In this document: one piece after another, positions 3,288 through 7,074 of the stretch | How positions within the stretch are numbered: the stretch's first letter is position 1 | Layout of the letters: every line of letters begins with the position of its first letter | Sequence record: OQ174501.1 | Source of the DNA: Escherichia phage REP2 | Direction: 5' to 3' (one strand) | Length of the DNA stretch: 64,000 bases | The notes under the pieces: generated by a model | Told to the model about the DNA's origin: nothing | The model's database searches: none | The model's input: only the letters and a program-made list of their open reading frames with translations | Translations under genes and position numbers: made by a program

Positions 3288-3772
3288 TTTTAAAAACTCG
3301 CTGGTATGATTTAGATGATGGGGACGATGGCATTTCAGTTGATAGAGTTGACTGGAGTGGCTGTTCCGAAGATATGAAAAAATTGTTAATTAGGGAGTTT
3401 AGAATGGGATATCAAGCAGCTAAGCCATCTACTGTAACAGATGATAAATTCGTGTGTATTCAAAATGGTCGTGCTAAGTTAACGAACGCTGATTGGTTCA
3501 CAGATAAGAAGGTTATTCTGTGGTATATTATTAGTTTTCCTGTGACATCATTTGTATTTTGCTTCTTTGGAGAAAGTCCAGTAGGCAGAACGGAAGATTG
3601 GATTCTTTTAATTATACTTGTTAATATTTTTACAGCAGCAGTACTATCAGGAATATGGTGCGTGTTCATTGAAATGCCATGGCGGTTACGTAGGCAGCAA
3701 AAGATTTTTGATGAAAAGAAATATACTCAAAATTTAAATAATTTTATCACTGAATGCAGGAAATTAAAATGA
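3284..3772 (+). CDS. Small membrane protein, paralogue family
   Basis: 162 aa; TM segments; C-terminal TECRKLK; its stop overlaps the nudE start (ATGA). Confidence 0.55.
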   Translation: MILKTRWYDLDDGDDGISVDRVDWSGCSEDMKKLLIREFRMGYQAAKPSTVTDDKFVCIQNGRAKLTNADWFTDKKVILWYIISFPVTSFVFCFFGESPVGRTEDWILLIILVNIFTAAVLSGIWCVFIEMPWRLRRQQKIFDEKKYTQNLNNFITECRKLK

Positions 3773-4208
3773 AAACATTATCAGCTGGTATTATCTTTAT
3801 GACAGAAGATAAAGATTTATTTATGGGACGAGTTACTGGTTCTCGTAAGCCTGGAATGATGGCACATCGCTGGATATTCCAAAGGGGCGTGTAGAAAATT
3901 CTGATTTAAGCGCATTAGATGCAGCACGAAGAGAATGCTCAGAAGAGACTGGTTTTAACAATTATAATCCAGACCTTCTAGAAGACCTAGGTGTATTTAA
4001 ATATTCTAGTAATAAAGACTTACAGTTATTTTATTATACGATTCCAGTAGAGCATGAGATGTTCAGAAATTGCCGTTGTGAGTCTTATTTTGAAAATAAA
4101 GATGGCGTTATGATTCCAGAGATGGATGCTTTTGCTCTTATTCCTCGTACTCAGTGGCAATATGTGATGGGTCCTTCACTTTACCGAATAATGAACAGCC
4201 TCTTTTAA
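3769..4208 (+). pseudogene. nudE: Nudix hydrolase NudE (e.1) with apparent 1-nt deletion frameshift
   Basis: N-terminal 41 codons (MKTLSAGIIFMTED...MMAHRW) stop at 3892-3894; the rest, including the Nudix box GRVENSDLSALDAARRECSEETGF, continues in the -1 frame to 4208. The break is at tgg(g)atattcc. Confidence 0.6.
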
Positions 4209-4778
<570 letters not shown>

Positions 4779-4798
4779 CAGTTACTTGGAGGGATAAA

Positions 4799-5215
4799 AT
4801 GACTCGTATTAATTTGACTTTAGTATCTGAACTTGCTGATCAACATTTAATCGCAGAATACCGTGAATTGCCACGCGTTTTTGGTATAATTCGTAAGCAT
4901 GTGGCAAACGGTAAGCGCGTTAAAGATTTTAAAATATCTTCCGAGTTTATTTTAGGTTCTGGTCATGTTACGTTCTTTTACGATAAGTTAGAATTTTTGC
5001 GAAAGCGTCAATTAGACATTATAACGGAATGCTTAAAACGCGGGTTCAGTATAAAAGATACTGAAGTTCCTGACATCAGCGATATTCCAATAGAATGGAA
5101 AAATGATTATAATCCATGCAAATCAGCTATTAAATTGAGTCAACAACGACTTGATGAAAAAATTTTAATGAAACCACACTGGTATAAGTATTACGGTAAA
5201 AATATTTACATTTAA
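4799..5215 (+). CDS. denV: Endonuclease V (pyrimidine dimer DNA glycosylase)
   Basis: 138 aa; [17 protein letters not shown]...YRELPRVFG matches T4 DenV as I recall it. Confidence 0.93.
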
Positions 5216-5224
5216 AGGAAACAT

Positions 5225-5698
5225 ATGAAAACATATCAAGAATTTATCACTGAAGCAGCTATTAATTCTCAAATTATTGCTGAATCTTTTACCGATCTTT
5301 TGAAATTTAAAAAAGGTCAAAAAATCACTGCTGTATTGGATGATGGTACAGAAGTTGAGATGGATGTACAGGGATATAATTATGCAGTAGATGGAAAACT
5401 GTATAATAAATCTCATGCTAAATTTGATTCATTTGACGACTTTGTTAATACAGTTGAAGATGAAAAAACTCGTAGATCCATTGCAACTGGCGACGCTAAG
5501 GTTCTTATGGCACATGGCCATGAACGCATCCGCGCTAAACAGAATAAAATGGGCGAAGATAATTTTGCATTAGTTGGTTATCAATCTGGTAAACAAACTT
5601 ATGGCTATCAACGTACTGCTACCATGTATAATAAAAATGGTAAAATCGCTTTCGTGAATAGTAAAGGTTCTATTCAGTACGTTAAATCGTTCAAATAA
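5225..5698 (+). CDS. Internal protein (Ip) with capsid-targeting N-terminus
   Basis: MKTYQEFITE|A capsid-targeting sequence; 157 aa. Confidence 0.7.
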   Translation: MKTYQEFITEAAINSQIIAESFTDLLKFKKGQKITAVLDDGTEVEMDVQGYNYAVDGKLYNKSHAKFDSFDDFVNTVEDEKTRRSIATGDAKVLMAHGHERIRAKQNKMGEDNFALVGYQSGKQTYGYQRTATMYNKNGKIAFVNSKGSIQYVKSFK

Positions 5699-5837
5699 TA
5701 TGGGAACAACCTGGACCTCATGATTCTATGAGGGATTCCCGCCAACCTGTAATAAGGTCGAGCCTGAGTGCGGTAATGGGTAAATACAGAAATGGACAAT
5801 TCATGCGCCACGGAATGGCCCAAATTTAGAGAGAATA

Positions 5838-6379
5838 AAATGAGAACATTTTTAACTGGTCCTTATCTATCCCTGATGAATGCTTTTACACACCATTCTG
5901 ACGCTAGAGTAGAAGAAATTTGTAAAAACGAATATATCCCGCCATTTGAAGAATTACTTAAACAGTACTGCACACTTCGACTAGATGGTGGACGTCAATC
6001 TGGTAAATCAACTGCAGTAACTAATTTTGCCGCTAATTGGTTGTATGACGGTGGAACAGTTATTGTTCTTTCTAATACTTCAGCTTACGCTAAAATTTCT
6101 GCAAATAACATTAAAAAGGAATTTTCGCGTTATTCTAATGATGATATACGTTTTCGTTTATTTACTGATTCTGTACGCAGTTTTATTGGTAATAAAGGAA
6201 GTAAGTTCAGAGGTTTATCGCTTTCGCGAATTTTGTATATAATTGACGAGCCTGTCAAATCTCCTGATATGGATAAGATTTATAGTGTCCATATTGACAC
6301 TGTACACTGCTGCTGTAATATTAAATGTTGTATTGGTGGTATTACTCGTCCACAGTTTTTCGTAATCGGAATGCAATGA
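5838..6379 (+). CDS. P-loop (Walker A) protein
   Basis: GGRQSGKST Walker A motif; start placed at the ATG after ggagagaataaa (ORF track starts at 5792); Cys-rich C-terminus. Confidence 0.5.
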
Positions 6380-6705
6380 TGACAGACACACAGCTTTTCG
6401 AATATCTCTATTTTTCGCCAAAAACTATTAAAAATAAATTGGTAAATCATTTTGAAATTTTGGCAAATAACAACATTTTAAGCGAATTTTATCCCAAGCA
6501 ATACAAATTACAAAAAGGCGTATTCAAAGGATGCAGAGTTTTGTGCACGGCTCCTAATGCACGGCTAATGAATAAAATTCCATATTTTACCATGGAATTT
6601 ATTGATGGGCCTTTTAAAGGACTAATCACACAGAGTTTAATGGCATATGATTCTGAGCCATTTTTAATTAAAGAACAATCTTGGATAAATTTATTTTCTA
6701 ATTGA
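6376..6705 (+). CDS. Hypothetical protein
   Basis: ATGA start/stop overlap with the previous gene; 109 aa. Confidence 0.5.
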   Translation: MMTDTQLFEYLYFSPKTIKNKLVNHFEILANNNILSEFYPKQYKLQKGVFKGCRVLCTAPNARLMNKIPYFTMEFIDGPFKGLITQSLMAYDSEPFLIKEQSWINLFSN

Positions 6706-6711
6706 GGTTAT

Positions 6712-7074
6712 ATGAAAGCATATCAAATTCTTGAAGGCACACATAAAGGTACTATTTATTTTGAAGATGGTATTCAAGCACGAATTATTGTCTCTAAAAC
6801 CTTTAAAGAGGACTCTTTTGTAGACCCAGAAATTTTCTATGGTTTGCATGCCCGTGAAATTGAAATTGAGCAACAGCCTACAGTTAAAATTGAAGGTGGT
6901 CAACACCTGAACGTTAACGTTCTGCGTCGTGAAACTCTGGAAGATGCAGTTAAGCATCCGGAAAAATATCCGCAGCTGACCATCCGTGTATCCGGTTATG
7001 CAGTTCGCTTTAACTCTCTGACTCCGGAACAGCAGCGCGACGTTATCGCTCGTACCTTCACCGAGAGTTTGTAA
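6712..7074 (+). CDS. Autonomous glycyl radical cofactor (GrcA/YfiD-like)
   Basis: C-terminal ~60 aa ([59 protein letters not shown]) matches E. coli GrcA with the glycyl-radical RVSGY motif; this half has host-like codon usage (ctg, cgt, ccg). Confidence 0.85.

Follow-up and report, generated by a model that had tools for sequence, protein, structure and literature searches.

Phage T4 encodes two small RNAs of unknown function, rnaC and rnaD (species 1 and 2), which are embedded in its tRNA array, co-oriented with the tRNAs, and presumably released by the tRNA-processing machinery. GOLLD and ROOL, both Rfam families, are elaborately folded RNAs of unknown function that are often carried by phages and often adjoin tRNA genes; they measure 500-800 nt and are found mainly in phages associated with Gram-positive bacteria. 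The HDV-like 'theta' and hammerhead ribozymes are small pseudoknotted RNAs that flank phage tRNAs independently of the surrounding genes. In the THF-I and ZTP riboswitch aptamers, a P1-closed junction with invariant joining bases is clamped by a long-range pseudoknot, and in the specificity domain of RNase P, T-loop/GGUAA modules dock onto the tRNA elbow.

The element described here is an RNA motif of approximately 90-125 nt on the plus strand of Escherichia phage REP2 (OQ174501.1; the window is the whole 64,000-nt stretch that was analyzed), and it belongs to the same broad kind, the structured phage RNAs of tRNA and early regions that have no known function. The catalogues contain neither its fold nor its family. 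It shares small size, co-orientation with tRNAs and location in tRNA arrays with rnaC and rnaD, but has no sequence or structure relation to them, and in T4-like phages it lies approximately 6 kb downstream of the array, by vs.8; our covariance model R1 had no match in the T4 region that contains rnaC, rnaD and eight tRNAs (L131; loci compared carry L numbers). In contrast to GOLLD and ROOL, it is short, occurs in phages of Gammaproteobacteria and has no Rfam match. Compared by sequence alone, it differs from the theta and hammerhead ribozymes in that it matches no model, has neither a nested double pseudoknot nor a CUGANGA/GAAA core, and is variably spaced from tRNAs. The junction clamped by a pseudoknot and, in T4-likes, the 5' leader position are reminiscent of THF-I and ZTP, whereas the genes downstream belong to no consistent class and, outside the T4-likes, an expression platform is not recognizable. 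The loop of P2 fits U-R-R-N-A (UAAUA, UGAAA, UAGCA and others) like the T-loop modules of RNase P, a likeness to be read as a lead only, and the J3/1 segment GCGGUAA presumably resembles the M1 RNA segments GUGAAA...UGCGGUAAG and CACGGUAAA, over 6-9 nt only. A tRNA association is common to both; the order of helices differs, however, and no RNase P model matches.

The window is from a Tequatrovirus; over 5650-5890, both Escherichia phage teqskov (MN895437.1) and REP3 share 100% of its bases. The local gene order is nudE-e-denV-Ip4-vs.8, with the element between the last two genes (Table 1). The window averages 34.3% G + C (sd 4.4% among 139-nt stretches). Positions 5699-5837 reach 46.0%, a level shared by just 0.6% of stretches of this length. 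The original prediction, a GC-rich segment between an Ip gene and a P-loop gene, therefore holds, with Ip4 and vs.8 as the two genes. The nested hairpin that it described, GGGAA/TTCCC enclosing CCTCAT, GATTCT and ATGAGG, and the GCCA directly behind it were likewise found in the sequence. Folded alone, the segment is no more stable than shuffled sequences (MFE -31.8 versus a mean of -32.05 kcal/mol, z = 0.06), so its significance rests on comparison with other sequences.

Table 1. Features of the element and its neighborhood in the REP2 window.
Feature	Position in window	Strand	Sequence or remark
nudE (e.1), frameshifted	3754-4208	+	First in the local gene order, followed by e
e (lysozyme)	4245-4739	+	
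denV	4799-5215	+	
Ip4	5225-5698	+	PF24183/phrog_3155; gene upstream of the spacer
Ip4/vs.8 spacer	5699-5839	+	141 nt
P0 outer helix	5702-5706/5736-5740	+	GGGAA/UUCCC; domain 5702..5740
P0 5' internal loop	5707-5715	+	CAACCUGGA
Pseudoknot 5' strand	5711-5713	+	C5711 U5712 G5713, paired with C5787 A5788 G5789
P0a inner hairpin	5716-5721/5728-5733	+	CCUCAU/AUGAGG
P1	5741-5744/5777-5781	+	GCCA/U5777 (bulged G5778) G5779 G5780 U5781; core 5741..5781
P2	5745-5748/5755-5758	+	ACCU/AGGU; loop GUAAUA 5749-5754
J2/3	5759-5761	+	CGA
P3	5762-5763/5770-5771	+	GC/GC; loop CUGAGU (5-6 nt in the family)
J3/1	5772-5776	+	GGUAA
Pseudoknot 3' strand	5787..5789	+	CAG; 5 nt after P1, at the position of the covarying strand in relatives
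3' domain (Tevenvirinae only)	5791..5821	+	AAUGGACAAUUCAUGC, hairpin, then CC
3' domain hairpin	5807-5810/5816-5819	+	GCCA/UGGC, loop CGGAA; GCCA-NGGAA-UGGC in Tevenvirinae
vs.8 (P-loop protein, 179 aa)	5840-6379	+	ATG at 5840; phrog_1488; neighbor, outside the RNA

Two further genes of the region deserve a remark. The nudE gene is split by a frameshift with its break near 3873-3888, residues 1-45 of T4 NudE aligning in frame 1 and residues 41-151 in frame 3; this could reflect a pseudogene or a sequencing error. The ORF at 6712-7074, which the original prediction had called a grcA chimera, has a GrcA-like C-terminal part with the glycyl-radical motif RVSGYAV, and its equivalent in phage Maryam is annotated as GrcA.

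The 141-nt spacer matches 1,112 phage records, of which 556 cover at least 80% of the segment. It is conserved over its whole length in Tequatrovirus, where the T4 copy (94% identity) follows denV, and other T4-like genera retain segment positions 44-123 at 73-81%. In otherwise unrelated phages, approximately 45 nt (window ~5738-5782) form a core that is 90-95% identical. Model R1 has a single match in the window (5737-5786, 70.5 bits, E = 2e-21) and scores 43-71 bits (E 1e-11 to 1e-21) over 40 loci. The element occurs in Straboviridae, Vequintavirinae, Schitoviridae, Flaumdravirus, Vibrio phages and phage Ivi, and its core is thus carried by at least five unrelated phage groups (T4-like, rV5-like, N4-like, Pseudomonas KIL-like, Vibrio and a 45-kb coliphage). 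Intergenic copies were identified in the rV5-like Vequintavirus JEP1, Pseudomonas Flaumdravirus KIL3b, Vibrio phage F98, a 289-kb Klebsiella phage, Mosigvirus EP32B, the 45-kb coliphage Ivi and the N4-like KpCHEMY26 (Schitoviridae). Pattern scans added 44 stretches from IMG/VR and 57 from metagenomes, approximately 33 of the latter being genuine. Records named 'Campylobacter phage' were rejected as a new host range, as they are UNVERIFIED Vequintavirus entries. As this distribution shows, the element has moved between unrelated virulent phages of Gammaproteobacteria.

Copy number and composition vary to some extent among T4-like phages. Tandem second copies are present upstream of vs.8 in L035 (5091-5251, minus strand), L041 (9020-9181, plus strand) and L118 (362-523, plus strand); in the second copy J2/3 reads CA instead of CGA, and all helices, P0 to P3 as well as a covarying pseudoknot (ACCA/UGGU), are kept. 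In EP32B (L018 2496-2575) only the core, with a mismatch in P2, and the 3' hairpin are present, and AlbertHofmann and LF82-2 (H89 and H90) match the 3' half only (query positions 80-137). These deletion variants indicate that the modules can be lost separately.

The motif consists of a P0 domain, a pseudoknot and a three-way junction, followed in T4-likes only by a 3' hairpin. The junction P1/P2/P3 forms the 45-nt core, in which approximately 25 bases are near-invariant; in loops and junctions these are the P2 loop (consensus GURRNA), CGA, GGUAA and the bulged G, which is conserved in the 3' strand of P1 after the first pair. P0 lies directly 5' of P1, with a sequence that varies by family and an architecture that does not. 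The pseudoknot joins the internal loop of P0 to the 3' tail, generally by 3-5 bp and in the window by 3 bp only.

Compensatory base changes were observed in P1, P0, P3 and the pseudoknot. In an alignment of 31 distinct cores (A1), the three central pairs of P1 are paired in 31/31 sequences, with 7, 8 and 13 double substitutions and pair types that include AU, UA, UG, CG and GC. The covariation score of A1 was 0.351, compared to 0.096 for column shuffles (0/500 reach it) and at most 0.09 when the partners were slid by 1-3 columns. Accordingly, the two strands of P1 are found as CCA/UGG, CCU/AGG, CCC/GGG, CUGGU/A[G]CCAG and CGCGG/C[G]CGUG, and the GCCA site of the window is occupied in relatives by CCU, CCC, CUGGU, CGCGG, CUA and others. 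GCCA therefore covaries with 5777-5781 as a strand of P1 and is no CCA end, which removes the resemblance to a tRNA 3' fragment noted in the original prediction. In P3, pair 27-34 is CG in 28, UA in two and GC in one of the A1 sequences; the variable C-G pair is replaced by U-A (F98, L045), G-C (L044, L088) or A-U (L105), and L078 is the one exception to this co-change. An alternative P3 proposed by RNAalifold (26-38/27-37/28-36) was rejected, since column 27 co-changes with 34 and not with the invariant G37.

The full fold was evaluated in a second alignment (A2), made with MAFFT from 19 non-Tequatrovirus Tevenvirinae and fitted to no structure. Including the pseudoknot, it scored 0.243, compared to 0.076 for shuffles (0/500) and at most 0.044 with slid partners. 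The three central pairs of the pseudoknot are paired in all 19 sequences (13-109, CG10 AU4 UA4 GC1; 14-108, GC14 CG5; 12-110, CG19). The P0 outer helix is GGGAA/UUCCC in the T4 type and AAAGG/CCUUU, AAAGC/GCUU or AAAGA/UCUUU in other Tevenvirinae (A2 pair 7-54, GC11 CG6 AU1 UG1), and in L096 P0a has changed from CCUCAU/AUGAGG to CCUUAU/AUAAGG. Outside the T4-likes, the architecture of P0 is kept with unrelated sequence in the JEP1, KIL3b, Ivi and N4-like copies, and the pseudoknot helix reads CCAGC/GCUGG in JEP1, GAGGG/CCCUU and UGAGG/CCUCA in other rV5-likes, AUAGCA/UGCUAU in KIL3b, CUCCGG/CCGGAG in Ivi, and CGGA/UCCG and CGGU/GCCG in N4-likes. A cruder test, which looked in 30 lineages for the longest helix linking the interior of P0 with the tail and compared it with shuffled tails, was not significant (Fisher p 0.89), so the case for the pseudoknot rests on the column-wise covariation in the unfitted alignment.

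The 3' domain is missing from the non-T4 families. Across Tevenvirinae its nucleotides are conserved independently of the reading frame, and in L037, where an Ip gene is inserted before vs.8, it remains with the element and not with vs.8. Its hairpin, GCCA-NGGAA-UGGC followed by CC (5807-5821 in the window), presents a GGA in the loop approximately 20 nt before the vs.8 start, and we take it to resemble a CsrA-type binding hairpin. Since the GCCA/UGG of P1 recurs in it, the hairpin might alternatively pair with P1.

P1, P0 and the pseudoknot contain many G-U pairs (e.g., 5-45, GU10; 8-41, UG4; 62-95, UG7). On the opposite strand these would be A-C mismatches, which argues for an RNA read from the plus strand. 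In the T4 reference genome (NC_000866.4), vs.8 is a 660-nt CDS (64253-64912; locus L128 889-1548) that starts at an ATG inside P0a and spans the whole element (window 5728-5829). In close relatives, the open stretch upstream of the vs.8 ATG measures 9, 57, 63 or 153-162 nt in differing frames, and the nucleotides are conserved despite this; in the window, the T4-style upstream ORF stops at 5829. In addition, positions 2-177 of 177 of the phrog_1488 profile match residues 3-179 of vs.8 in its short form. The variable frames, the conserved nucleotides and the fit of the profile to the 179-aa form together show that the region is non-coding. The T4-style N-terminal extension was rejected for the differences in frame and length among close relatives, and a small ORF starting at 5792 (MDNSCATEW...) because its frame is not conserved. 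The comparative data thus contradict the T4 RefSeq start and point to a 540-nt vs.8 that begins at window position 5840. The ribosome-binding region of this form (5829-5842) reads AGAGAAUAAAAUG, one base from GGAGAAUAAAA, the 11-nt optimal RegB/S1 target (PMC1702504).

Searches for known families or cellular homologs did not place the element. In the window, ARAGORN found no tRNAs, and no Rfam 15 family, the tRNA clan included, overlapped the element at E<=10. At E<=1, it was also unmatched by Rfam 15 in nine diverse loci (L002, L003, L007, L011, L016, L019, L032, L045 and L049), whose genuine neighboring tRNAs score 33-80 bits; the models scanned included hammerhead, twister, twister-sister, pistol, hatchet and HDV-like ribozymes, riboswitches, RNase P, Y RNA and 6S. 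No match was obtained with blastn in 5,426 complete E. coli genomes. Among 185,579 bacterial and archaeal species representatives (GTDB) there were 19 pattern matches, all GC-rich coding sequences that score at most 25 bits, compared to 43-71 for the phage copies, and are at chance level. In a test for a PeSL, the promoter-early stem-loop cassette of T4-type phages in which an early sigma-70 promoter directly follows the stem-loop, no promoter-like site was found in 5699-5839. Resemblances to twister (CCCAAGC loop), hammerhead (CUGAGUG), the GUAAUA loop of the 23S GTPase center and the 16S 530 loop were discarded as evidence of homology, because the bases are variable in relatives or the order of helices differs. 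No description of the element was found in our literature search, which did not extend to the list of 10,006 candidates of a phage RNA survey (PMC10690425). Matches to Rfam and to the host are thus both absent, and conservation is very strong; of the interpretations first offered, the small RNA stands, as a conserved and covarying plus-strand structure, a processing site is conceivable, and the tRNA fragment and the relic of host-derived DNA do not stand.

The genomic context differs between T4-like and other phages. In T4-likes, the element is found directly 5' of vs.8 whatever gene lies upstream (denV, Ip4 or other Ip genes). Homologs of vs.8 are confined to T4-like loci, with none at any non-T4 locus compared, and no protein gene co-occurs with the element across families in the loci compared; vs.8 was therefore rejected as an obligate protein partner. 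Outside the T4-likes, the element usually has tRNA genes on its own strand within approximately 1.2 kb. It is located between tRNA-Met and tRNA-Arg in KIL3b and between tRNAs in L045, L089, L105 and L124, in the last two 38-52 nt after a tRNA. In rV5-like and N4-like loci it lies approximately 200-570 nt upstream of tRNA-Arg(UCU), and in L023, L079, KpCHEMY26 and F98 approximately 0.7-1.2 kb downstream of tRNA arrays; no tRNA was found in the DNA examined around the copies of Ivi, L032, L044, L049 and L088. The element is always co-oriented with the flanking genes and tRNAs. No promoter-like site of its own was detected within 5699-5839 of the window. In JEP1, the order is a promoter-like site, the element, a weak terminator-like hairpin and a strong promoter, and in Ivi the element is likewise followed at once by a strong promoter-like site and preceded by a second promoter-like site.

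Some loci show additional sequence features around the element. In rV5-like phages (L002 1830-1960 and L007 540-760), repeats of the motif CCC(N)TAGAGGG(N)CTTGA(T/A)AGTGC border the element, in L007 on either side; the motif may represent a promoter specific to the phage or a signal for processing. In the N4-like loci L005, L011, L023 and L089, an extra helix, GUUGUGAC/GUCACAAC (GUGAA/UUCAC in L089), closes the whole element approximately 40 nt to either side, and a repeated unit, TTTCCGTTGTGACGAAAGCAAA, recurs nearby.

Taken together, these comparisons indicate that the segment is very probably a real structured RNA, conserved and belonging to a family that is missing from Rfam 15. They show a conserved, strand-specific pseudoknotted fold that behaves as a self-contained module and tends to travel with tRNA arrays. 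As a whole, the data are best explained by an autonomous, gene-independent structured RNA module, an interpretation that we consider reasonably likely because the context is tied to no gene and the habitat is shared with other stable phage RNAs. The element would be read from the plus strand within the early e-denV-Ip4-vs.8 transcript, and the internal loop of P0 pairs with the 3' tail, clamping the 45-nt three-way junction. The RNA would probably be released from polycistronic transcripts, as are other stable RNAs in phage tRNA clusters, and its invariant junction may offer a surface to which a conserved partner binds specifically; this partner could be a macromolecule of host or phage tied to tRNA or RNA metabolism, or a small ligand. 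We tentatively suggest that it could act in trans by binding such a partner, as a component of an RNP or a decoy rather than as a regulator of vs.8. To our knowledge, only tRNAs and species 1 and 2 have been reported from the classic gels of T4 stable RNAs, a point against the RNA being both abundant and stable in T4. It is possible, but somewhat doubtful, that the element represents a new functional RNA class (a ribozyme, an anti-defense tRNA-related binder or decoy, or a sponge), hidden within T4 itself, and that horizontal transfer has carried it through virulent gammaproteobacterial phages with tRNA genes; as a binder, it might be a decoy for the tRNA elbow or an enzyme, countering host defenses that target tRNAs, and as a sponge it might soak up a host factor or a signaling nucleotide.

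The main rival explanation is a small self-cleaving ribozyme of a new class, whose targets would be polycistronic early transcripts or those of tRNA arrays. Small size, a pseudoknot with a junction, and invariant bases are typical of the hammerhead, twister, pistol, hatchet and HDV-like 'theta' ribozymes, and the element, at approximately 90 nt with a pseudoknot, a junction and about 25 invariant unpaired or junction bases, has the same features, as well as independence of context, a phage habitat and proximity to tRNAs. Its start approximately 16-20 nt after a tRNA 3' end in L124 and L105 would also suit a ribozyme. However, the spacing to tRNAs varies from 38 to approximately 1,200 nt, so the element cannot define tRNA ends in general. 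Moreover, P2 and P3 are invariant in sequence beyond what pairing alone would explain, there is no candidate cleavage site, the known ribozyme models of Rfam 15 do not match and the hammerhead blocks are absent. We therefore regard a ribozyme as unlikely.

A cis-regulator, too, would be expected to keep its place immediately 5' of vs.8 across Tevenvirinae, as the element does. In such a leader, restricted to the T4-likes, the junction would serve as the aptamer of a riboswitch or as a protein-binding operator, and the GGA-loop hairpin as its expression platform. Consistent with this, a conserved hairpin lies between the P1-closed junction and the start codon, 20 nt ahead of the latter, the location ahead of vs.8 holds in almost all Tevenvirinae for any upstream gene, and in JEP1 the 5' arm of the terminator-like hairpin (ACCCA) is complementary to the 3' strand of P1 (UGGGU). 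In contrast, the core occurs in rV5-like, N4-like, KIL-like, Vibrio and Ivi phages that have no vs.8 homolog. When we considered the element as a riboswitch, we found it upstream of vs.8 in Straboviridae only, and elsewhere in tRNA arrays or ahead of promoters, often with these next in line rather than an ORF. The Ip gene that separates the element from vs.8 in L037 and the existence of tandem copies fit poorly as well, and a function as vs.8 leader therefore seems improbable.

It is more improbable still that the segment merely punctuates the mRNA, acting between cistrons as an intrinsic terminator or as a hairpin processed by RNase III/E. The intercistronic location would suit this, and in one GenBank record the inner hairpin is given as a rho-independent terminator (a WebGeSTer prediction). 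Yet the two hairpins are followed by GAUUCCC and CCAAAUUUAG, with no U-tract after any hairpin, and a scan of 4700-6500 returned no terminator-like site. Neither a covarying pseudoknot nor 25 invariant bases across virus families would be needed for such a role.

A DNA-level element, such as a homing-endonuclease or recombination site or a single-stranded DNA hairpin, would be in keeping with the edge of the hypervariable Ip region, the transfer between families, and the HNH/Seg endonuclease genes that are common in tRNA arrays. We consider it highly implausible, since the frequent G-U pairs are strand-asymmetric, the orientation to transcription is fixed, and a pseudoknot and a junction with a bulged G are features of RNA. 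The superficial minihelix with GCCA and the tRNA genes near the relatives gave some appeal to a degenerate tRNA or host-derived relic, but with the tRNA and E. coli searches empty, the cellular matches at chance level, GCCA covarying, and 90-95% identity across unrelated phages where decay would be expected, this is scarcely credible. Equally so is a protein-coding role as an N-terminal extension of vs.8, for which the in-frame T4 ATG and the annotated 660-nt CDS speak, against the varying upstream frame, the stop at 5829, the phrog_1488 match to the short form and the compensatory nature of the substitutions in helices.

An autonomous RNA module thus remains the explanation that we prefer. 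A covarying pseudoknot and approximately 25 invariant bases in myoviruses, an N4-like podovirus and a 45-kb coliphage imply strong selection and would point to a gene-independent function at the RNA level. T4 is the best-studied virulent phage, yet its reference genome either does not annotate the element or wrongly treats it as protein. The function is open to direct tests, since T4 and rV5-like phages lend themselves to genetics. Ribozyme, decoy or sensor alike, the element would provide a new Rfam family and a corrected annotation of vs.8. Its travel with tRNA arrays ties it to the question of why phages carry tRNA clusters and enigmatic stable RNAs, which are now thought to be related to the evasion of tRNA-targeting immunity.
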